Origin: an uncultured Actinomycetes bacterium | GTDB lineage: Bacteria > Actinomycetota > Thermoleophilia > UBA2241 | Assembly (NCBI GenBank): GCA_963709345.1 | Contig: CAVPVX010000002.1 | Location: 320,001-384,000 of the forward strand | Direction of reading: 5' to 3' | DNA: 64,000 nt | Shown: piece after piece, positions 4,527 through 24,188 of the stretch | How positions within the stretch are numbered: the first letter of the stretch is position 1 | How the letters are laid out: every line of letters begins with the position of its first letter | Translations under genes and position numbers: made by a program | The notes under the pieces: model-generated | Databases searched by the model: none | The model's input: the letters and a program-made list of their open reading frames with translations, nothing else | Told to the model about the DNA's origin: nothing

Positions 4527-4979
4527 TCAGATCTGGTAACGGCGCACAAGCAGGCCGGCCACGGCCGTCAGCACCAGCGTGATCGCTGCCGCCCAGACGA
4601 TGCGGTAACCCACGATCCAGAAGACGCCGGCGCCGAGCGCGATGAAGATCAGCGAGTCCTCGACGACGGCGTGCACCATGCTGAGGAACGTGCTCATGAT
4701 GAAGACCTGCCGGCGACCGAGGTCGTGCCGACGCACGTCGCGCACGATCACCCCGCCGCCGTAGGCGAGCCCGAAGAGGAAGCCGATGAGCGTAGGCGCC
4801 GCCGACCGCTCGTCGAGTCCCACGTGCCTCACGACGCCCGCCCAGGCGCGGACCACCGCACGAAAGATGCGCGTCCCCTCGAAGATCTCGAGAACGACCA
4901 TGATCGGCACGACGATGAGGAAGACGCGAAGCAGCAGGTCGGCCGACCCCGCAACGAAGGTGCGCAGCAGGTCGTCCAT
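4527..4979 (-). CDS. Nucleoside-recognition (Gate) domain membrane protein
   Basis: GFLFGLAYGGGVI, HAVVEDSLIF; multiple TM segments; second gene of a pair. Confidence 0.75.
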   Translation of the reverse strand: MDDLLRTFVAGSADLLLRVFLIVVPIMVVLEIFEGTRIFRAVVRAWAGVVRHVGLDERSAAPTLIGFLFGLAYGGGVIVRDVRRHDLGRRQVFIMSTFLSMVHAVVEDSLIFIALGAGVFWIVGYRIVWAAAITLVLTAVAGLLVRRYQI

Positions 4980-4981
4980 GC

Positions 4982-5473
4982 TCAGAGCCAGCCCATCAAC
5001 AGATTGGCCGTCGCTGCGGCAGCGAGTCCCGCGACGACACGCAGGGCGCCGAAGGCGAAGCCGTTCATCCCGGCCCTGTGGAGCACGGCGCCCTCGACCA
5101 CGAGGTTGTGCCCTATGAGGATCGCGATCGCCAGCACGGTGATCTGCCGGGCGTCGAGGTCGAGCGCCTGCATCGAGCCGACGGCCGCGTAGATGTTGAG
5201 CAGATAGCCGACGACCAGCGGGACGGCGGCGTCGCCGGGCAGGCCGAGGGCCTGCATGACCGGCCGGGCGGCCGTGGCCAACCATCCGATGACGCCGAGG
5301 TACTCGAGAACCAGCGTGATGCCGTATGCCGGGATCATGACTTTGGCGAGATCCCAGAACGTCTGCAGGCCGGAGACCAGGCCGAGGCGCAGATCCCGCC
5401 GCACGAGGGCGCCGAGGCCCTCCGGCGGGGGCGGGAGCGGCGTTCCGGGTGCGGTGTCGGTCGAGTCGGGCAT
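4982..5473 (-). CDS. Nucleoside-recognition (Gate) domain membrane protein
   Basis: PVMQALGLPGDAAVPL, NIYAAVG, GHNLVVEG; first gene of a pair. Confidence 0.75.
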   Translation of the reverse strand: MPDSTDTAPGTPLPPPPEGLGALVRRDLRLGLVSGLQTFWDLAKVMIPAYGITLVLEYLGVIGWLATAARPVMQALGLPGDAAVPLVVGYLLNIYAAVGSMQALDLDARQITVLAIAILIGHNLVVEGAVLHRAGMNGFAFGALRVVAGLAAAATANLLMGWL

Positions 5474-5622
5474 GCGCCGGGCATTCTCGCACGAGCGCAC
5501 CCCCGCGTCACAGCGCGAGGCACATGCGCCGACAACGTCACCGGGGACGGAGGGCAAACGTCACCTCCGGCGGCAGCGCGTCACCCTTGAGGCTCACCGG
5601 GCACGGGGCGCACGATGCCCAC

Positions 5623-6135
5623 ATGCTCATGACCGGACACCGCATCCTCCTCGTCATCGCCCTGGTGGCCGCGGCCGTCACCGTCGTCGCCGTACTGCTG
5701 TCGGCCTGCGGAGAAGCCGACGTGCCGGCTCCGCGGGTCGCTCCCTCCGACACGCATCTCGCCTCCCTCTCGCCCAGGCCATCGCCGACGGCAAGCCCTG
5801 CGGATGCAGCGGACCGCCTCGAGGCGGTCCGCACCGTCGAGCTCTACTGCCGCCTGGTGGACCGCGGTCAGTTCGCCCGGGCGGGACTGCTGTGCTCCCG
5901 CCCTGATCTGCTCACGCGGAGGGAGCTCGCCTCACTTCGAGCCTTCCGCTTCCGCTCGGCGCGCGTCCATGCCGCTCCGGACGCGCGCACGCTCGTTCTG
6001 CTCACTCGCGTACGCGTGCGCGCGGGCCGAGGTTGTCCGCTGCCGGACGGCCTCGTCACGCTGTTCTTCACCCTGGGGAGGGTCCACACGGGCGTGGAGG
6101 GATGGCTCATCACCGCCATCGCCACGAGCCCATAA
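5623..6135 (+). CDS. Putative lipoprotein, hypothetical
   Basis: Hydrophobic N-terminus ending in lipobox LSAC; C-terminal GWLITAI; directly upstream of the amidase-domain gene. Confidence 0.55.
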   Translation: MLMTGHRILLVIALVAAAVTVVAVLLSACGEADVPAPRVAPSDTHLASLSPRPSPTASPADAADRLEAVRTVELYCRLVDRGQFARAGLLCSRPDLLTRRELASLRAFRFRSARVHAAPDARTLVLLTRVRVRAGRGCPLPDGLVTLFFTLGRVHTGVEGWLITAIATSP

Positions 6136-6155
6136 CCCTCGAGAAAGGGGTCCGA

Positions 6156-7304
6156 ATGAAGAGACGACAAAGGGTACTGTGGACGGCGGTGGGGCTGGCC
6201 CTCGCCGCCTGCGCCGCCGCGGCCGTATCGGCAGGGGCCGCAAACGGCGGCAGGCCGGCCGGCGGCGGTGACCCACCATCCGGCCCGGCGGCCGCCGCCA
6301 TCGGCTATCTGCAGGCCCGCGCGGCCGCCGTCACGGCCGTCGACCCGCGAGCAGTACTGGACGGCTGGGTCGCTCCCGGAAGCGGTCTGGCGGACACCGA
6401 GACGCTCATCGCCCGCGGGGCCGCCCGGCGCGCCCGGCAGCTCGGCCACTCCATCGAGTCCGTCGCCTGCGACGTGGAACTGCTCGGCGAGACGCCGTCG
6501 GCCGACGGCAGGTCGGCGACGGTCATGGTCCGCGTGATCACGACCACAACCTGGCGCGCCGCGTCGGGCGCCGTCGACGAGGAAGCCAGCGGCATCGACC
6601 ACACCCTCAGCGTCAGACTCGCCGATGGGTCGTGGTCCGTGGCCGCCGACGTCTACAGCGACGTGCTACGGCCACACTATCTGGAGGCCGCCGGCGGCTC
6701 GGCGGCTCGAGTGCGACGCGCCGGACGCGCGCTCGAGCGCGCCTCCGCCTCGATGCGTCTTCCACGCGCGGGCCGCGTGGCGCGAGCTGCCGCGCCCCGG
6801 CGGTACAGGGCGATCGTCAAGTACGACCGCGCAACGACTCAAGCCTACGCCGACAAGTACGCGCTCTCCTACAACCCCACCTACGTCGGTTTCGGCGCCG
6901 ACTGCGCCAACTTCGCCTCCCAGTGCGCCGACGCCGGCAAGATGCCGCAGACGCCCGGCGTCTGGGATACCGGCTGGTGGTACAACAAGCGTGGCACATC
7001 CTCGCCGAGGGACGACGCCTACAGTCTGAGCTGGATCAACGTCACCAAGCAGATCGCATTCTGGAACGGCCGCCGGACCGACTGGGCGAGCTCGATCAGC
7101 ACGCTTGCCCGCGGTGATTTCGTCTACTACGACTGGACCGGCGACGGCTTCTGGGACCACGTCGCCGTCCTGGCCGGCACGAACAGCGCCGGGCAGAAGG
7201 TCATCGACGCGCACAGCACCGACTACCGGCGCGTGTTCTGGAAGCTCGGCACATCGTCGACGCGGTACAGGTTCGCGAGGACGCGGCCGGAGTGGGTCGT
7301 CTGA
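6156..7304 (+). CDS. Secreted Amidase_6-domain protein
   Basis: Signal peptide; YDR..AYADKY, DCANFASQC, GDFVYYDW, DHVAV, IDAHS. Confidence 0.8.
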   Translation: MKRRQRVLWTAVGLALAACAAAAVSAGAANGGRPAGGGDPPSGPAAAAIGYLQARAAAVTAVDPRAVLDGWVAPGSGLADTETLIARGAARRARQLGHSIESVACDVELLGETPSADGRSATVMVRVITTTTWRAASGAVDEEASGIDHTLSVRLADGSWSVAADVYSDVLRPHYLEAAGGSAARVRRAGRALERASASMRLPRAGRVARAAAPRRYRAIVKYDRATTQAYADKYALSYNPTYVGFGADCANFASQCADAGKMPQTPGVWDTGWWYNKRGTSSPRDDAYSLSWINVTKQIAFWNGRRTDWASSISTLARGDFVYYDWTGDGFWDHVAVLAGTNSAGQKVIDAHSTDYRRVFWKLGTSSTRYRFARTRPEWVV

Positions 7305-7448
7305 GCGCGGGCTGAACGGAGCCGGCGACACGCCGACGGAACACGGCATGCCACGCCGGGCGAGATCCGGCTGAGCGGCTCCACGACACGGCTGGCCGCG
7401 GCTGAGAGATGGTGGACTCGGCTGCGGCCGGCCGCGTCGAGCGGCGGA

Positions 7449-8813
7449 TCAGTCGAACCCCGGCGCCGCGTCGTGCGCCGCCATGTCGGCGTCTGTCTCG
7501 CGGCGGCGGATCTGCGCCACCGCGCCGTCGCGTGTAACGGCGAACGCCGCCGCCCGCGGGCGCGCGTTGTACGGGTTCATCATCTCCAGCGTGTACGCGC
7601 CCGTGTCGAGGAAGGCGACCACATCGCCCACAGACGTCGCCGGCGGAAAGAGCCGGTACGGCGAGTCGCCGTCGCCGGCGAAGACGTCGCCGCCGTCGCA
7701 GAGCGGGCCGGCCAGCCGGAACTCGGCCGTCGGCTCCTCGTCGGCTCGCGACGCGACGATGGTGCGGTAGTACCAGTGGTAGTTCGTGTGCTCGAGCAGC
7801 GTGTTGAAGCCGGCGTCGACCGTGAGCCAGCGCTCGTCCCCGGTCCGCCGGCCGGCTCCGTCGCGACGGCCTTTGGTCTTCTCGTTCTCGACGCGGGCGA
7901 CGACGACGGCCGCGGTCGCCGCGACCGACCGGCCCGGCTCCAGGAAGAGCGCGAGGTCGGGACGCCGCGCCTTCAACTCGCCGCCGATGACCGCCGCGTA
8001 GTCCGCGGCCGTAAGCTGCGAGCAGAAGTAGTCGCTCGGGTGGCACGTGACCGGCGCCTCACGGTACGGCACGGCGAATCCTCCACCGGCGTTCAGGAAG
8101 CGCATACGCACGCCCTCAGCCGCCTCGACCGCGGCGATGATGTCCAGAGCCGCGCCGACCGCCTGCCGGTACGGCTCAACGCTGGTGATCTGCGAGCCGA
8201 CGTGCAGGTGCAGGCCTGCCGGCTCGAGCGCGGGATCGTCGGCGGCGAGACGGAACGCCGCGACGGCGTCGTCGCGGTCGATGCCGGCCTTCCCGCCGTG
8301 GGCCGTCTCGAGACCCGGATGCGTGAGCGTGGAGACGTGTACGTCGATGCGCGGAGCAACTGGAGCGACCCGCCCGAGTGCGGCGGCGACCCCGGCAATA
8401 CGACGCAGTTCGCAGATGGAATCGACCATGAGGGCGCGCACGCCGCAGGCGACTGCGCGTTCGATCTCAGCCCTGGTCTTGGCGACCCCGTTGAAGATGA
8501 TGCGCCGCGGCTCGAACCCAGCCGCGAGGGCCTTTTCGAGCTCGCCGCCGGCGTTGACCTCGACGCCGGCGCCCTCGTCGCGGACGACGTTGAGGAACCA
8601 GCGATTGGAGCAGGCCTTGCTGGCGAAGAAGACTTCGGTCGCCGCGTGCTGCGCCCTGAAGGCGTCGATGAGACCCCTCACGTTGGCGCGGAGCCGGCGC
8701 TCGCTGAAGACGAAGAAGGGCGTCTCGCGCTCCTCGGCCAGCGCCACCAGATCGACGTCTTCAAAGCAGAGGCGTCCGTCCCGGACGGTGAGCAGTGGAT
8801 CGGTCGCCGGCAT
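7449..8813 (-). CDS. Fold-type III PLP decarboxylase (LysA family; D-ornithine/D-lysine decarboxylase-like)
   Basis: TPFFVFSE, FFASKAC (PLP Lys), HLHVGSQ, NAGGGF, EPGR, GPLCDGGD (not the CE motif of DAP decarboxylases), GAY. Confidence 0.85.
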   Translation of the reverse strand: MPATDPLLTVRDGRLCFEDVDLVALAEERETPFFVFSERRLRANVRGLIDAFRAQHAATEVFFASKACSNRWFLNVVRDEGAGVEVNAGGELEKALAAGFEPRRIIFNGVAKTRAEIERAVACGVRALMVDSICELRRIAGVAAALGRVAPVAPRIDVHVSTLTHPGLETAHGGKAGIDRDDAVAAFRLAADDPALEPAGLHLHVGSQITSVEPYRQAVGAALDIIAAVEAAEGVRMRFLNAGGGFAVPYREAPVTCHPSDYFCSQLTAADYAAVIGGELKARRPDLALFLEPGRSVAATAAVVVARVENEKTKGRRDGAGRRTGDERWLTVDAGFNTLLEHTNYHWYYRTIVASRADEEPTAEFRLAGPLCDGGDVFAGDGDSPYRLFPPATSVGDVVAFLDTGAYTLEMMNPYNARPRAAAFAVTRDGAVAQIRRRETDADMAAHDAAPGFD

Positions 8814-9228
8814 GGTGCCTCCTGGTTGTCGTCTGCCCGGTCAGAGAAGTATACTGCGCCCGCTTTGTCCCACCGGCTACAGGAGCTACGTGAACCGAGT
8901 GGTAGACGCAAGCCCTCACGATCATCGTCGCATCGCCTTCTCGGGCGGCAAGGTGCACGACTTCTAATACCCTTCTCCCCGACGCGCGTCCGACGACGAC
9001 ACCCGCGCGCCGCCTCGACGGTCGGTATCGACACGCCAAGATCCGTTCGGCCACGCCGGCCCGGCCCTCGTGATCACCACGGCGTCTTCGAACCGCACCA
9101 GCCCCGGATCGCCTCGGTCTTCGAGTCGGCCGGCCGGGCATGATCACCGATAAGGTGGAGCACGATGATGATTCCTTCGCAAGCGACGATACCCGAGGCT
9201 CGATCGCCTTGGGCGGAGCGCTGAGCCG

Positions 9229-10332
9229 ATGGCGGCTCTCCCCCGGCTGACGCTCGATCTCGACGCCGTCGCCGACGCGACACGGCGTCTCGCCGCGGAC
9301 CTGCACGCCCGCAGGCTGACGCTCTGTGGCGTCACCAAGTGCGTCGATGGCGAGCCGCGGGTGGGGCGGGCGCTGCTCGAGGCCGGCTGCGCCGGACTCG
9401 CCGACAGTCGCCTGCCCTCGCTGGCGCGACTCGCCGCAAACGCACTGGGGCCGCTCACGCTGATCCGGGCGCCACAGCCGCACGAGCTGGATGCCGTGGC
9501 GCAGATCGCCGACCGGGTGCTGCTCAGCGACCCGGGCGCCACCCGCGCGCTCGGAGAGCGCGCCCCCGGCGCCCCCATACAGATCCTTCTCACTGTCGAC
9601 CTGGGCGACCGCCGCGAAGGCGTCCTTCCGGACGCGGCTCCGGAGATCGCGGCCAAGCTGGCCGTCCTGCCCGGCGTCGAGCTGGCGGGCATCAGCGTCA
9701 ACTTCGCCTGCCTCTCGGGGCAACTGCCCTCGCAGGAGCTGTTCCGGCAGGCCGAGGACGTCCTGGCCGGCATCGCCGAGTGGTGCGCCGCCGAGCCCGT
9801 CCTGTCGCTCGGCGGCACCTGCGTCGTCCAGCATATCGACGGCTACACGCCCCGCTTCGCCACCGAGATCCGTTCCGGCGGCGGGCCGATCTACGGCTAC
9901 GACTTCGTCAGCGACGCCAGTATTGCCGGCCTCGAGCGCGCCGACCCCGTGCTCACGGCGGCCGTGCTCGAGTGCTACCGCAAGCCGCCGGCGCCGTCGT
10001 GCCCCGGCGGTCTCGACGCCTTCGGCCACGTGCCGGAGGTCGAGTTACCCGACCGGGACGCCTGGTACGCGATGCTCGCCGTGGGCAGGCGCGACATGGA
10101 GCCGCAAGGGCTCCGGCCGCTCCTGCCGGGCGCGTACCTCGCCGGCGCGACGAGCGACGTGAGCGTGCTGATCACGCCCGAGCCGCTGCGGCCCGGCGGC
10201 GAGGTGGAGTTCGCAGTCGACTACGACGCGCTCGTGCGCGCCGTCACGTCGCCGTTTGTCGCCGTGGAGTACGTCGGCCGCGGCGAGGCGGCGCCCGCGA
10301 CCGGCTCGGGCGTCTCGAAGGGAGACTCATGA
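9229..10332 (+). CDS. Alanine/ornithine racemase-family PLP enzyme (Orr-like)
   Basis: GVTKC (PLP Lys), LADSRL, VDLGDRREG, NFACLSG, RKP...DAFG, GATSD. Confidence 0.8.
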   Translation: MAALPRLTLDLDAVADATRRLAADLHARRLTLCGVTKCVDGEPRVGRALLEAGCAGLADSRLPSLARLAANALGPLTLIRAPQPHELDAVAQIADRVLLSDPGATRALGERAPGAPIQILLTVDLGDRREGVLPDAAPEIAAKLAVLPGVELAGISVNFACLSGQLPSQELFRQAEDVLAGIAEWCAAEPVLSLGGTCVVQHIDGYTPRFATEIRSGGGPIYGYDFVSDASIAGLERADPVLTAAVLECYRKPPAPSCPGGLDAFGHVPEVELPDRDAWYAMLAVGRRDMEPQGLRPLLPGAYLAGATSDVSVLITPEPLRPGGEVEFAVDYDALVRAVTSPFVAVEYVGRGEAAPATGSGVSKGDS

Positions 10333-11785
10333 CCAGCCACGCCGACGGACGCTACGTCGGGCCGAGGCGGCCGCTCCGGCTCCTGGAGGCGGCCGACGTG
10401 GAACGCATCCATCAGGCCTCGCTCGACGTGCTCGCCGAGACAGGCGTCATGTTCCACTCGCAGCGGGCGCTCGACGTGCTCGAGGCCCACGGCGCCACGG
10501 TGGACCGCGAGACGACCGTCGCCCGCATTCCCGCAGCGGCCGTCGCCGAGGCGCTCACTACTCTCCCCGCCGGATTCACCCTCGGCGGGCGCACCCCCGA
10601 GTTCGATCTCCCCCTCGACGGGGAGCACGCCTACCTCTGCTCCGACGGCTGCGCCACCTTCGTGCGTGAAGCCGACGGCACGGTGCGGCCGAGCGTCAAG
10701 CAGGACGTCTACGACGCGGCTCGCGTCGTCGACGGCCTGCCCAACCTCTCGGCCACCTCGGCGCTCGTCTCGGCCCAGGACACGCCCGAGGAGAGCCGCG
10801 TCCTGCACGAGTTCGACGCCTGCGTGCGCGCCTCGCGCAAGCACAGCGTCGTCGTCAGCATCAAGGACGCCGCCGAAGCCAGGCCGCTGATCCGCATGGC
10901 GGAGGCGATCGCGGGCGGGGCGGCGGAACTCAAGGCTCGCCCGGCCTTCTCGGTCGTCCTCTGCACGGTGAGCCCGCTGCACCAGGAGCGCTTCGGCATG
11001 GAGCTCGCCTTCGAACTGGCCGAGGCGGGCATCCCGATCTGCTCTACCCGATGCCGATCCTCGGCGCAACGGCGCCGGTCACGCCCGCCGGCGTGGCCGT
11101 CGTCAACACCACCGAGATCCTCGCCGCGGTCACCGCCGTGCAGCTCGCCTGCCCCGGCGCGAAGATCGTCCACGCCGGCGGCCCGACCTCGCTCTTCATG
11201 CGCACGGGCGCCTACTTCGCCAACGTCCCTGAGGCCCTGCTCCTGCGCGCCGCGCAGGCGCAGATGGCCTCGTTCTACGGAATGCCCGCCGGCCTCGGGT
11301 GGGGCGGGACCAAAGCCAAACAGCCTGAAGCTCAAGCTGCCTACGAGAACACGCTCGGCATGGTGCTCGAGATGGCGGCCGGCGCGGACTTCCTCTTCGG
11401 CGCCGGCCTCCTCGACAGCGTGCAGCAGATGTCGCTCGAGGAGCTGGTGATCGCCGACGAGGTGTTCGGCATGGTCACGCACCTGCTGCGCGGCGTCGCG
11501 GTCGACCGCGAGACTCTGGCGGTCGACCTCATCAAGAAGCTCGGCTTCCGCGGCGACTACCTGTTCGAGCCGCACACACGCGATCACGTGCGCGAGCTGT
11601 GGCGGGCGCGCCTCGGCGAGACCGGCACCTACGAAGGCTGGAAGAGCGCGAGCAGCCCGCGTCTGGAAGACAAGGCGCGGGCCGTCGCCGATGGCCTCCT
11701 CGCCGCCCCCGCACCCGAGTTCCCCGCGGACCTGGACCGCGAATTCAGCGAGATCATCGCCGCGGCCGAGTCCGGCCGCGTCTGA
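10329..11785 (+). CDS. Trimethylamine methyltransferase family (non-Pyl MttB), one frameshift near 11040
   Basis: IHQASLDVLAETGV, CTVSPL, PMPILGATAPVT, AKQPEAQAAYE; frame changes at GIPI/LYPMP (one base missing); ATGA overlap with the racemase stop. Confidence 0.85.
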
Positions 11786-11796
11786 AAGGATCCACC

Positions 11797-13261
11797 ATGG
11801 CATACGCAGACAAGTGCTACGTCGGCAAGCGAGTGAAGCTCGAGCTGCTCGACGAGACCGAGATCGGGCAGATCCACGAGGCGACCCTCGACGTGATCGA
11901 GAGCGTCGGCGTCAAGTTCCACTCGCAGAGCGCGCTCGACATCCTCGAGGCCCACGGCGCGACCGTGGACCGCGAGACGACGGTGGCGAAGATCCCGGCC
12001 GCCGTCGTCGAGCAGGCGATGAGCACCGCGCCGCACGAGTACACCCTCGGCGCGCGCAACCCCGAGTACGACCTGCCGCTGGACGGTGAGCACGTCTACA
12101 TCAGCTCCGACGGCTGTGGCGTCTTCTACCGCGACCCGACCACCGGCGAGGTGCGCTCCTCGCGCAAGGAGGATCTCGAGAACTGCGCCCGGGTCGTGCA
12201 GGCGCTCGACAACGTCAGCGCCACGAGCGCCGTGGTCAGCGCCCAGGACTGCCCGACCGAGACACGCGTGCTGCACGAGTTCGACGCCTGCGTGCGCAAC
12301 TCCGAGAAGCACAGCATCGTCGTCAGCATCAAGGAGGACTGGGAGGCGCGCAGCCTGATCAAGATGGCCGAGGCGATGGCCGGCGGCAAGGAAGAGCTGA
12401 AGCGCCGGCCGATGTTCACCACCATCATCTGCACCGTGAGCCCGCTCCACCAGGAGCGCTACGGCATGGACCTCGCGCTGACTCTCGCCGAGGCCGGCAT
12501 CCCCGTGAGCCTCTACCCCATGCCGATCCTCGGCGCGACGGGCCCCATCACGATCGCCGGCTCGCGCCGTGGTCAACAACGCCGAGTTCCTGAGCGGCGC
12601 CGTGCTCGTACAGCTCGCCCACCCGGGCGCCCCCGTGATGCACGGCGGCGGCCCCACGGCGATGTACATGAGCTCCGGCGCCTACGCGAGCAACTCGCCG
12701 GAGGCCCTGCTGCTGAGAAGCTGCCAGGGCCACATGGCCGATTTCTACGGCGTGCCGGCCTGGTACGGCGCCGGCGCCACCACCGCCAAGGAACCCGGCA
12801 TCCAGAGCGCCTACGAGAACGCCCTGGCGATGTTCATGGCGTACTCCAACGGCGCCGACGTCACGTTCGGCACCGGCCTGCTCGACGGCTCGCGCATCCT
12901 CTGCCTCGAGAACATGGTCGTGGACGACGAGATCATCGGCATGGTCAAGCGCATCCTCACGGGCATCGAGGTGAGCGATGAGACGCTGGCCGTCGATCTC
13001 ATCAAGAAGATGGGCTTCAACGGCAACTACCTCTTTGACAACCACACTCGAGCGCACGTGCGCGAGCTGTGGCAGGCCAAGCTCGGCGAGACCGGCAGCT
13101 ACGAGGCCTGGAAGACCGCCGGCGCGAAGAGCACGACCGAGAAGGCCCAGGACAAGGTGGCCGAGATCCTCGCCGCCGACCCCGTGCCGTTCCCGGCCGA
13201 CCTCGGCGCCGAGTTCGACGCGATCATCGCCGCGGCGGCGAAGGAGGCCACGGCCCGCTAG
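11797..13261 (+). CDS. Trimethylamine methyltransferase family (non-Pyl MttB), one frameshift near 12564
   Basis: IHEATLDVIESVGV, CTVSPL, PMPILGATGPITIAG; one extra base before AVVNNAEFL; AKEPGIQSAYE; close paralog of the upstream gene. Confidence 0.85.
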
Positions 13262-13448
13262 AGACCGCGCCGCGCGACGAGGGCGGGCACGGCGGGAGCC
13301 GAGTGCCGAGCTGCAGCCGCCGGATCGAGGTCGTCGTGAAGGAGCGGACCCGGCTGACCCTCCCCGCCGGGGCTGCGATTGCGGTAGCATGAGGCGCGGG
13401 CGGCGCTGCCGCCCGCGCCTCGCGCGCACCCCAAGCCGGAGCGACGCC

Positions 13449-15521
13449 GTGACCGCCACCAGAGTCCGCGAAGAGGGCTTCAGCAAAGACGCCGACAAGC
13501 TCATCCGCAGGCTCAGCCTGGTCGCCCTGCTGCTCTCGCGCCGCGGGCAGCCGGTGACCGTCGCCGAGATCCGCAGCCGCGTAGAGGGCTACCCGATGAT
13601 GACGGAGGAAGCCTTCAAGCGACGCTTCTACGAGGACCGCCGCGAACTCGAGGGGCTCGGCATCGTGATCGCCGCGGATGACGGCGCGAGCGGCGGCGGG
13701 CCGGAGCTCTACAGCCTGCCCGCCGACGCCTACTACCTCGCCCCCGTCGAGCTCACCGGTGACGAACTGGCGGCGCTGGCCGCCTGCCTCGCGGTGCTTG
13801 AAGACCGCTTCGCCTATTCCCAGCCCATGCGCCTGGCGCTGCTCAGCCTGGCACAGGGCCGCCCGGACCTGCTCGGCGAGGCGGAGACGCCGCCGCTCAC
13901 GGTCGTCCCCGAGACACGCGCACCGGCGACGGCGTTGCCGAAGCTCCAGGCGGCCGTCGCGGAGCGGAAGACCGTCAAGTTCAGGTACTACGCCATCGGC
14001 CGCGACCAGGAGATGGAGCGCGTCGTCGACCCGTACGGCCTGCAGCTCGTCGCCGGCGAGTGGTACCTCGTCGGCCGTTGCCATCTGAGGGACGCCCGGA
14101 GGACCTTCCGCCTCTCGCGGATCCGCTCGCGCGTCACGCACGCGACCAGAGCGCCGCACGACTTCGTCGTCCCCGGCGGCTTCGACCTCGCAGCCTATCG
14201 CGACCGCCCCTCGTGGCAGCTGGCGGAGCCTCGCGGCGCGGCGCGCGTCCGCGTGTCCGCGGCGATGGCGTGGTGGGTCCAGGCGCACTGGGCCCACTGC
14301 GGGTCCGTGACGCCGCTGGACGACGGCGCGATCGTCTACGAGACCCCCTACGCCGACGCGAGACCGCTGCTCGGCTGGGTGCTCGGTCTCGCCGACGAGG
14401 CGGAGCTCCTCGAGCCGCCGGAACTGCGCGCCGAACTCGGCGAGCGCCTTGAGCGGCTCGCCGGCATGCTGGCTGCGCCACCTGCTCAGGCGCCGGCCCG
14501 GCCGGCCGGCGGCGCGACCGATCCCGGACGGCGGCGGCGGCGCCCCGCCGACGACTGGCGTGTCGAGGTCGACCGCTTCACCCGACTCACGGCGCTGACG
14601 AGCTACCTCCTGCGCCGCTGCGCCGGCGACGAGGCCGTGTTCGACCTCGCCGAGATCCGGTCCGCCCTCGGCGTCGGCGCCGACGAACTGCGCGCCGACG
14701 TGCGCCTGCTCAACCTCGTCAACTTCGGCGCCGACGGAGCCTTGCTCTTCGCCGAGTTCGAGGGCCGGATGAAGCTGCGCGTGACCTGCGACCTGGCAGG
14801 CCCGGCGCTGGCGCGCCCCGCCCGCCTCTCGCCTCTTCAGGCCGACACGCTGCTGCTCGCGATCGAGCTCGTCGGCGGCCAGGTCCCGACCGCCTCCGGC
14901 GGCGCCCTCACCTCCGCCGCCGCGAAGCTCTGGGCCGCACGCGGAGAAGGCGCGTCGACCCTCGCGAGCGGTGACCTGCTGGTGCCCGCCGGCGACGTCC
15001 TCACCACCGTCAACTCGGCCGTCGCCGCGCGCCGGCTCCTCGAGATCGAGTACTGGACCGAAGGCACCGACCGGGTCACCAGGCGGACCGTGGAGCCCTA
15101 CCTGCTGGTGCACAGCCGCGGTGAGTGGTACTACGTCTGTTGGTGCCGCACCGCAGGGGGCACGCGTGTGTTCCGCGTGGCGACCACCAAGAGCGCCCGC
15201 CCGCTCGACCAGACGTTCACCCCCAGGCCCGAGGTGGAGCTGGATGTCTATCGCCGCGAAGGCATCCCCACGTCCCGCAGCTACGCGCCTCACACCGCGA
15301 CGGTGTGGTACAGCCCCGCCGTCGCCCGATGGATCGCCGAACGCCAGCCGGTGCGCCTGCTCGCCGACGGCGCCTGCCTCGCTCCTCAGCCTTACGTCGA
15401 CGAACGCTGGCTGGCCGGCCACCTGCTGCGCTTCGCCGACCAGGCGTGCCCGCTCGACCCGCCCGAGGCGACGGCCGGCGTCCTCGCCACTGTCGAGCGC
15501 CTGCGGGAGCGCTACCGGTGA
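13449..15521 (+). CDS. Naturally fused PafBC-like regulator (HTH-WYL-WCX x2)
   Basis: FKRRFYEDRREL, VDPYGL..GEWYLVG..RTFRLSRI; second module RTVEPY..EWYYVCWC..RVFRV; GTG start inferred. Confidence 0.85.
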   Translation: MTATRVREEGFSKDADKLIRRLSLVALLLSRRGQPVTVAEIRSRVEGYPMMTEEAFKRRFYEDRRELEGLGIVIAADDGASGGGPELYSLPADAYYLAPVELTGDELAALAACLAVLEDRFAYSQPMRLALLSLAQGRPDLLGEAETPPLTVVPETRAPATALPKLQAAVAERKTVKFRYYAIGRDQEMERVVDPYGLQLVAGEWYLVGRCHLRDARRTFRLSRIRSRVTHATRAPHDFVVPGGFDLAAYRDRPSWQLAEPRGAARVRVSAAMAWWVQAHWAHCGSVTPLDDGAIVYETPYADARPLLGWVLGLADEAELLEPPELRAELGERLERLAGMLAAPPAQAPARPAGGATDPGRRRRRPADDWRVEVDRFTRLTALTSYLLRRCAGDEAVFDLAEIRSALGVGADELRADVRLLNLVNFGADGALLFAEFEGRMKLRVTCDLAGPALARPARLSPLQADTLLLAIELVGGQVPTASGGALTSAAAKLWAARGEGASTLASGDLLVPAGDVLTTVNSAVAARRLLEIEYWTEGTDRVTRRTVEPYLLVHSRGEWYYVCWCRTAGGTRVFRVATTKSARPLDQTFTPRPEVELDVYRREGIPTSRSYAPHTATVWYSPAVARWIAERQPVRLLADGACLAPQPYVDERWLAGHLLRFADQACPLDPPEATAGVLATVERLRERYR

Positions 15522-23549: not shown

Positions 23550-24188
23550 TCATTCCTCACCGCGCGTGACGTAGCGACGGCGTATCAGATACTGGGCAAG
23601 GGGGATCGACAGCCAGGCGTACTGCACAGCCTCCGTCCCCAAGGGCAACAGGACCAGTGAACCCAGGAAGATGAGGGCGACCACGAGGCCACGCCAGATG
23701 GAGAACCTGGTACTGCGTTCTGACACATGTGGCGAGCAGAGACGGTGACCCAGCAGGGCGTAGGCCGCAAGGCCGGAGGTCGCGAGGCCGACCAGCGCCA
23801 GCGTGACCGCATAGACGGCGACGGCGAGAGGCTGGTCGCCGCGCTCCCCGACGAGCGAGGACGTGAAGGGCTGGACGACGATGAACAAGAGCACCAGCAT
23901 ATTGAGCCAGATGAGGCGGGCGTCGTACCGCTCGATCACCGAGAACAGCCGGTGATGGACCACCCAGTACGTGCCGATCACGAGGAAGCTGATCGCGAAG
24001 CTGAGAAAGGAGGGCAACAGGCCGGCGAGCTCCGCGGCGAGATCGCCGCTCGCCGGCACCTCGAGCTGGAGCGCGAGCAGGGTGATGGCGATGGCAAACA
24101 CGCCGTCGCTGAATGCGGCGATGCGCGCCACCTCCCTCGACTGGTCGCGCGCCGACTCCCCGGTGACTGATGCTCTCTCTGCCATCAC
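23550..24188 (-). CDS. TMEM175-family (DUF1211) channel protein
   Basis: RIAAFSDGVFAIAITLL signature; SFLVIGTYWVVHHR. Confidence 0.88.
   Translation of the reverse strand: MMAERASVTGESARDQSREVARIAAFSDGVFAIAITLLALQLEVPASGDLAAELAGLLPSFLSFAISFLVIGTYWVVHHRLFSVIERYDARLIWLNMLVLLFIVVQPFTSSLVGERGDQPLAVAVYAVTLALVGLATSGLAAYALLGHRLCSPHVSERSTRFSIWRGLVVALIFLGSLVLLPLGTEAVQYAWLSIPLAQYLIRRRYVTRGEE

Follow-up and report, generated by a model that had tools for sequence, protein, structure and literature searches.

In Salmonella, the racemase OrnR (STM2358) and the decarboxylase DokD (STM2360) are encoded in one operon, which holds no MttB methyltransferase in the part of the source available (PMC13397332). 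Members of the MttB superfamily without pyrrolysine (Pyl) include MtgB, whose glycine-betaine-binding residues are given as Y97, R312, H348 and F356 in the accessible portion of PMC13080624. SpeFL, the ornithine-sensing leader peptide of speF, carries HIRRXXH at residues 10-16 of its 34 and, as far as the available text describes it, works with a 257-nt spacer and Rho (10.1101/604074). Here we report a locus that holds a racemase of the OrnR/Orr family, two tandem MttB-superfamily genes (MttB1 and MttB2), a divergent DokD-like decarboxylase and a short leader open reading frame (ORF). It lies in a 64,000-nucleotide stretch of DNA, hereafter the window (G000:C2:320001-384000; contig CAVPVX010000002.1 of assembly GCA_963709345.1), from an uncultured soil member of the Thermoleophilia with a genome of 3.11 Mb in 11 contigs and ~70% G+C. 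Racemase, MttB1 and MttB2 form a real, co-regulated unit, to which the decarboxylase is accessory. On the evidence of sequence, we read the whole as a co-regulated, lineage-specific catabolic module for an ornithine/lysine-type compound N-methylated at its distal end, and put the probability of that complete chain at roughly 40%.

Conservation of the neighbourhood supports the racemase-MttB-MttB unit. The racemase has an orthologue in 23 of the 24 other sampled genomes of the genus, and a scan restricted to a single genome for each species gave 80 loci, 68 of them orthologous, from metagenome-assembled genomes (MAGs) of Thermoleophilia/Actinomycetota with racemase identity down to 56%. MttB1 and MttB2 follow the racemase at 56 of the 59 loci with at least 3 kb of downstream sequence, at racemase identities down to 63%. 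With at least 1.8 kb of upstream sequence available, the decarboxylase is divergent within 1 kb at 54 of 61 loci, lies elsewhere in the fetched locus at two and is missing from five. The neighbourhood, whose conservation in other genomes the original prediction had left to be checked, is therefore kept, within one Thermoleophilia lineage. The overlap behind the translational coupling of racemase and MttB1 proposed at that stage can be read directly from the letters, the racemase stop TGA (10330-10332) overlapping the MttB1 ATG (10329-10331) behind GGGAGA; the same 4-nt overlap was found in 35 loci. MttB1 ends at 11785 and is separated by an 11-nt spacer, which contains AAGGA, from the start of MttB2 at 11797. 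The decarboxylase is called accessory because whole genomes keep the remaining genes without it. Coordinates are collected in the table below.

Features of the window discussed in the text, with positions counted from its first nucleotide
Feature	Position	Strand	Evidence
DokD-like fold-III decarboxylase dependent on pyridoxal 5'-phosphate (PLP), 454 aa	7449-8813	-	Pfam Orn_Arg_deC_N + Orn_DAP_Arg_deC
Sigma-70-like promoter, TTGTCG-18 nt-TATACT	8826-8855	+	Promoter scan, alignment of 12 loci
Leader ORF, 25 codons + TAA (22 codons if GTG at 8899 is the start)	8890-8967	+	Conservation
OrnR/Orr-family PLP racemase, 367 aa	9229-10332	+	Pfam Ala_racemase_N, NCBIfam Orr
MttB1, non-Pyl MttB-superfamily methyltransferase, one frame change	10329-11785	+	PF06253
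MttB2, tandem paralogue of MttB1, one frame change	11797-13261	+	PF06253
Fused PafB/PafC-like regulator (two WYL, two WCX, HTH_PafC)	13380-15521	+	Pfam
Third MttB-family gene, intact, 495 aa	21973-23460	-	PF06253, 217 bits

The racemase has a single NCBIfam match, the ornithine racemase model Orr (NF040742), at 137.2 bits against a cut-off of 480. OrnR is defined by catalytic Lys-36 and Cys-164, PLP-binding Arg-129 and Arg-220, and an Asn-161 that replaces His (PMC13397332, accessible part). K37, R129, N158, C161 and R215 of the window racemase are invariant among 12 aligned relatives and supply each of these catalytic and PLP-binding residues, the correspondence having been drawn by motif and near-equal numbering rather than by direct alignment to the Salmonella protein. 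The enzyme is thus, as judged from its residues, a member of the OrnR/Orr family, for which ornithine racemisation is a prediction. A second Orr-like gene in the genome (C2:180355-181401, 32% identity to the window racemase) lies near genes for an ornithine carbamoyltransferase and a MutL-type protein and a B12-binding match, and looks like a classical ornithine-fermentation setting.

Among solved structures, the best match of the decarboxylase is Salmonella DokD (6n2h; E 3e-90, 306 bits, residues 10-448), the best diaminopimelate (DAP) decarboxylase (LysA) reaching 206 bits. The divergent ORF does carry, at residue 369, the GPLCDGGD motif that had been pointed out in it, together with both Pfam decarboxylase domains, and the DokD-type motifs that had been noted there as well are visible in the alignment with 6n2h. 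Against NCBIfam the protein scores 372.5 bits with DokD (NF052544), short of the equivalog cut-off of 700, and 327.9 bits with lysA (TIGR01048), so that automatic annotation would name it LysA, the lysA cut-off being 297.9. The best 150 homologues were taken from a search of 1.84 billion representatives, and among the 53 that were scanned against NCBIfam only P0024 passes the DokD cut-off (724.4 bits); about 30 fall in a grey zone, and the remainder, at 380-546 bits, are clearly LysA. In a quick maximum-likelihood tree built from 69 rows (the window decarboxylase, two paralogues from its genome and 66 of those best 150), a 'CE' clade stands apart from a 'CD' clade, with a support of 96 on each side in the Shimodaira-Hasegawa-like approximate likelihood ratio test (SH-aLRT). 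The window decarboxylase, with CD instead of CE like the rest of its clade, falls in a 13-row group with P0024 and P0008 (SH-aLRT 98), and the genome's own paralogue on contig C11 sits in the CE clade.

The Arg of the RPxxY motif in LysA binds the distal carboxylate of DAP. All five LysA rows of our alignment read R-P-x-x-Y after VDAG, whereas the window decarboxylase has Glu at the Arg position (LLEHTNY), as do P0002, P0010 and P0008; P0024, P0017 and P0011 have Asp there and P0006 has Asn. The protein shares fold and PLP motifs with LysA (TIGR01048) but has neither CE nor RPxxY and belongs to the other main clade of the tree; nor is it the housekeeping copy, a separate LysA-clade paralogue being present at C11:47079-48317. 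Whether it grouped with true LysA had been named as a check on the prediction, and it does not: it groups in the GPLCD clade together with the DokD equivalog. By these sequence features it is a DokD-like paralogue, neither a housekeeping LysA nor a DokD equivalog, and its placement on the DokD side, together with an acidic residue for the LysA Arg, suggests a substrate with a cationic distal group. At three other loci (L085, L087 and L099, at about 4600-7650), two tandem DokD-like genes lie upstream of the racemase, with 54-55% and 66-68% identity to the window decarboxylase.

Like the Salmonella pair, the window thus combines an OrnR-family racemase with a DokD-clade fold-III decarboxylase at one locus, the racemase keeping the catalytic Lys and Cys and the decarboxylase the GPLCDGGD motif and an acidic residue where LysA has Arg. 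Unlike that pair, the window proteins score far under the equivalog cut-offs (372/700 and 137/480 bits) and their genes are divergent rather than in one operon and have no transporter genes, while the racemase is coupled to two MttBs and a leader ORF is present.

Four MTTB pieces on the plus strand at 10329-13261 match PF06253 at 103-148 bits (cut-off 25) and jointly cover profile positions 28-493. The two tandem MttB paralogues that had been described here therefore stand as to family and tandem order, but neither is a single open frame in this assembly, a matter taken up below. With the trimethylamine MttB model TIGR02369 (cut-off 525 bits) the halves score 176+187 and 233+194 bits, and there is no TAG; the Pyl position is occupied by Gly in 42/42 MttB1 orthologues, and by Ala in 45 and Gly in one of 46 MttB2 orthologues. 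To judge from these residues, both are non-Pyl members of the superfamily. Direct comparison was made with MtgB and Pyl-MttB only. Intact orthologues of MttB1 and MttB2 score 195 and 231 bits against Methanosarcina barkeri Pyl-MttB and 178 and 225 bits against Desulfitobacterium hafniense MtgB, about as near to one as to the other. When Y97, R312, H348 and F356 of MtgB are mapped onto the orthologues through a 9yce alignment (one MttB1 row, L110, was left out because of its in-frame stop), the 42 MttB1 sequences have C, G (41; C in one), G and V/S/A, and the 46 MttB2 sequences have C, W, G and S, so that all four glycine-betaine residues are replaced in both and the two groups carry fixed but differing residues at the substrate positions. 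Within the genome MttB1 and MttB2 are mutual nearest paralogues (63-64% identity in the N-terminal and 53-55% in the C-terminal part), the next nearest paralogue standing at 37-44%. They share with the non-Pyl quaternary-amine MttBs (MtgB; MtpB, MtcB and MtyB of Eubacterium limosum) the PF06253 fold, the lack of pyrrolysine, the presence of many paralogues in the host and genes that need not lie beside a corrinoid partner, as is also the case for the non-Pyl MttB genes of E. limosum; they differ from them in being coupled to PLP enzymes.

That no corrinoid partner gene is present, as had been stated, holds for the window but not for the genome, where 24 B12-binding matches were found, the nearest at C2:393329-393670, ~9.3 kb past the window end. 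Variable inserts between MttB2 and the PafBC-like gene, and between the amidase and decarboxylase genes, gave nothing in Pfam, or GNAT, DegT or Ig-like domains, with no corrinoid protein and no transporter among them. PF06253 has 64 matches in the genome, nine with one in-frame TAG and four with one TGA. The genome also encodes pylS (C11:18405-19130, 318 bits, cut-off 178), a tRNA-Pyl(CUA) at C11:14991-15063 and a selenocysteine tRNA (tRNA-Sec) at C1:120215-120312; no tRNA genes lie in the window, and none was found beside pylS in L140. The organism is a Pyl-decoding methylotroph with corrinoid partners encoded outside the window. Actinobacteriota MAGs from a thawing mire express Pyl-encoding mttB and mtbB, with the genus Bog-752 among the active methylotrophs, according to the accessible part of PMC10805028. 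One orthologous locus (L089) comes from a MAG labelled bog_752, which may belong to that genus.

Racemase and decarboxylase are divided by a 415-nt divergent spacer. In an alignment of 12 loci, conservation is much higher in a ~160-nt block adjoining the decarboxylase start than in the remainder. The promoter listed in the table lies in this block and is the sole match of a promoter scan in 8700-9400 (shuffle mean 0.0); across the 12 aligned loci, neither TTGT of its first hexamer nor AGTATACT, made up of the second hexamer and two flanking bases, shows any variation. Its -10 element lies inside this palindrome (8848-8855) and, the sequence AGTATACT being palindromic, might also serve the decarboxylase leftwards, so that a shared -10 may drive that gene on the other strand.

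Downstream of the promoter, AGGAG at 8881-8885 precedes the leader ORF, whose product ends in AFSGGKVHDF before TAA. Of 69 loci, counting that of the window, 56 have exactly one ORF ending in H-D-[F/Y]-stop in the 520 nt before the racemase. The 13 others comprise five truncated contigs, four loci without the decarboxylase (L084, L095, L104, L111) and four without such an ORF (L097, L103, L106, L128); at L135 the decarboxylase is lost and the leader ORF kept. Leader peptides have 23-26 residues where the ATG start is clear and range over 22-26 codons overall. Across the last 17 codons of 51 distinct leaders, the residues His(-3), Asp(-2) and Ala(-10) are constant; the three codon positions give minority counts of 120, 138 and 214, and synonymous variation is seen at Arg(-13), Asp(-15) and Phe(-1). 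The stop codon is TAG at 29 loci, TAA at 27 and TGA at none, in contrast to the window at large, where TGA ends 31 of 39 well-supported ORFs and TAA one. H[DE][FY]-stop occurs a single time in the six frames of the genome, and the peptide has no match among the NCBIfam models. At L078, where the decarboxylase lies ~5 kb off the racemase, a leader-like sequence stands by each gene (L078:3232 and L078:7755), the copy beside the decarboxylase being without a stop. At L084 an Rrf2-family regulator by Pfam (7256-7684, minus strand) replaces the decarboxylase, divergent from racemase-MttB-MttB; an Rrf2-like N-terminus is also readable in L095 and L104, and an AT-rich stretch separates the Rrf2 gene from the racemase operon.

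The leader resembles the arrest leaders SpeFL and TnaC in being a short same-strand ORF upstream of a catabolic amino-acid operon, with its strongest conservation over the 13-17 C-terminal residues before the stop, and its main group has P-H-D-[R/H]-R-R, reminiscent of the HIRRXXH of SpeFL as given in the available text. It differs in using TAA and TAG only, where SpeFL, on the same partial account, uses all three stops. The likeness to SpeFL is therefore partial, a lead suggested by sequence and not a match. A riboswitch in the spacer was considered and rejected, as Rfam gave no match in 8600-9400 at E up to 1. A helix predicted by RNAalifold in a compact subgroup, pairing leader Gly codons with the racemase ribosome-binding region at 8/8 loci, never varies on both sides and proves nothing.

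Neighbours at other loci offer a few, weak hints toward basic, possibly N-methylated amino acids, in agreement with the direction given by the two PLP enzymes. Racemase paralogues at 46-55% identity (L121-L123, L125, L127) adjoin a polar amino-acid ATP-binding cassette (ABC) transporter at 5/5 loci, and the best NCBIfam model of its binding protein is a Lys/Arg/Orn subfamily (128 bits, under the cut-off of 256). A dimethylargininase-like gene (~100 bits, also under cut-off) lies 3' of MttB2 in L096 and L101, and 3' of the paralogue in L125.

In the catabolic module that we propose, transcription from the plus-strand promoter would run through the leader ORF into a racemase-MttB1-MttB2 operon, with the decarboxylase expressed divergently from the same spacer, and the leader peptide would couple expression to a ligand through ribosome stalling at its own stop codon. 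The substrate would be an ornithine- or lysine-type amino acid with distal N-methyl groups (trimethylornithine, trimethyllysine) or a diamine derived from it. MttB1 and MttB2 would transfer methyl groups to cob(I)alamin-binding proteins whose genes lie in other parts of the genome, the racemase would make the D-isomer, and the decarboxylase, where present, would convert that isomer to a diamine. A bolder version, which we think improbable, would make this a new route of anaerobic methylotrophy: distal-N-methylated ornithine or lysine, from sources such as the trimethylornithine of membrane lipids or the trimethyllysine of protein turnover, would be demethylated by the MttB pair and the skeleton disposed of by the PLP enzymes, and a new ligand-sensing arrest peptide, ...GG-x-x-HD[F/Y]-stop, would block termination dependent on release factor 1 (RF1) and turn the module on.

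Each part of the locus is of a kind already known. Within the reach of the literature searches, what is new is the combination, together with the leader ORF. No racemase-MttB-decarboxylase cluster was found described in the literature searched, which took in no supplements, so that the gene tables of PMC10805028 may list such genes; the racemase mentioned in the accessible part of PMC9303578 is a lactate racemase. The present lineage is common in metagenomes from peat, wetland and soil, habitats where methylotrophic bacteria and methanogens compete for methylated amines, according to the portion of PMC10805028 available. Among Actinomycetota, the leader ORF, with its fixed HD[F/Y] end and TAA/TAG stops only, stands as a candidate for a new nascent peptide with a regulatory role. 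Non-Pyl MttB enzymes number, to our knowledge, in the thousands, with substrates known for a handful only. The tie between the MttB pair and two ornithine/lysine-type PLP enzymes leaves as candidate substrates a short list of purchasable compounds and makes the open question of orphan MttB substrates testable at the bench.

A number of observations weigh against a single pathway of this kind. No DokD-like gene exists anywhere in genomes G003, G006 (100% complete) and G009, which have racemase-MttB-MttB and whose sole fold-III decarboxylase match has 34-37% identity, like the LysA-clade paralogue on C11; a single MttB is found downstream in L113 and L119; and L097 keeps racemase and decarboxylase without any MttB. 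Such partial sets indicate that the racemase, MttB and decarboxylase functions are separable. Elsewhere in the phylum a DokD-like gene was found in 2 of 400 sampled genomes, at 37-38% identity (E up to 1e-65). All loci belong to a single Thermoleophilia lineage that also keeps the neighbouring amidase-domain and PafBC-like genes, so that the conserved neighbourhood is not independent evidence of a pathway. On the side of the methyltransferases, the characterised non-Pyl MttBs act, as far as we know, on quaternary amines only, and comparison with MtgB and MttB turned up no substrate-specific residue that links MttB1 or MttB2 to methylated ornithine or lysine; the dimethylargininase-like neighbours are limited to 3 loci. 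As for the leader, its SpeFL-like motif lies 12-17 residues before the stop rather than 19-25 as in the available description of SpeFL and is absent in the HDY subgroup, and the RNA of the window spacer folds no better than shuffles (minimum free energy z +0.46). None of the runs searched contains the window strain itself (best word share 0.23), and the frameshifts in the MttB genes are not directly disproved.

In a rival reading, two unrelated functions share one transcript: racemase and decarboxylase would make putrescine or cadaverine from L-ornithine or L-lysine via the D-isomer, and the MttBs would demethylate an ordinary quaternary amine such as betaine, choline or a relative. The Salmonella OrnR and DokD pair works without an MttB in the accessible account, L097 has the racemase and decarboxylase only, three genomes have racemase and MttBs without the decarboxylase, and with 64 MttB matches in the genome a chance neighbour is not rare. 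Yet the racemase-MttB1 junction and the MttB pair persist at 56/59 loci to a racemase identity of 63%, MttB1 and MttB2 form a subfamily of their own at a distance of 37-44% identity from the next paralogue, the four glycine-betaine residues of MtgB are all replaced, and a classical Orr is already present in the genome, beside ornithine-fermentation genes; we regard two unrelated functions as the main rival, somewhat less likely than the single pathway. The same constancy of the racemase-MttB-MttB core, the part least often broken, would fit a racemase that serves the MttBs, the methyl donor being chiral and used as one enantiomer, with the decarboxylase a later, dispensable add-on for the demethylated product. 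The core outlives the loss of the decarboxylase in G003, G006, G009 and L135, and in L135 the leader ORF stays with the racemase operon; but the literature searched offered no precedent, and the decarboxylase is still adjacent at 54/61 loci and shares the control block, which makes this arrangement rather improbable in our estimation.

A further alternative concerns the window strain alone. MttB1 passes from frame 0 to frame 2 near 11039/11040, one base being missing, and MttB2 from frame 1 to frame 2 near 12564/12565, with one extra base. Were both frameshifts real, MttB1 and MttB2 would be pseudogenes and the module would be decaying in this strain, in favour of which it can be said that the breaks of both genes fall within ~20 codons of a common region, that the genome has several further split MttB paralogues and that no available run contains the exact window sequence. 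The frame changes are nevertheless probably assembly errors, because the orthologues are intact: 42 of MttB1 and 46 of MttB2 are open, those of L042, in the same genus, with 485 and 487 aa. In a census of six genes over 68 species-level loci, grouped by record name, assemblies of long-read style (few contigs, named 'contig_N') held 89 frame changes in 311 kb (2.86 per 10 kb; 21 of 39 loci affected), against 3 in 190 kb (0.16 per 10 kb; 3 of 29 loci) for the others. All six genes were hit in the long-read-style assemblies, and the two changes in ~8.7 kb of the window, itself from a few-contig genome, fit the long-read-style rate. Neither half of either gene shows further stops or decay, and the halves are 79-93% identical to intact orthologues. 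Contigs of related strains from four public metagenome runs are intact at both sites, with one base added at 11038/11039 (X2, X3, X4) and one dropped at 12564/12565 (X1, X3, X4, where X1 includes a 255-nt near-identical contig with one gap); aligned at a likeness of at least 88%, they come from relatives, possibly including paralogues, and show that intact frames exist, not that the window is in error. We consider both changes very likely to be assembly errors, most likely of long-read origin, and regard decay of the module as very improbable.

Programmed frameshifting was dropped as an explanation of the two frame changes, which are of opposite sign and have unshifted orthologues. Some dozen MttB paralogues in the genome come in neighbouring pieces, with seven of the breaks at profile positions 244-290, the same region as those of MttB1 and MttB2. 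GATC occurs at or near both breaks in the window, and a GATC-linked basecalling error behind them is possible.

Elsewhere in the window, the PafB/PafC-like regulator lies directly 3' of MttB2, a place that it holds in nearly all loci. The third MttB gene adjoins a TMEM175-type channel gene (23550-24188) and has no corrinoid gene beside it. Between 38000 and 42000 the G+C content falls to 0.60 against ~0.70, next to genes for GIY-YIG, NERD/UvrD-like and PD-(D/E)XK nuclease proteins, and this segment may be a foreign insert.

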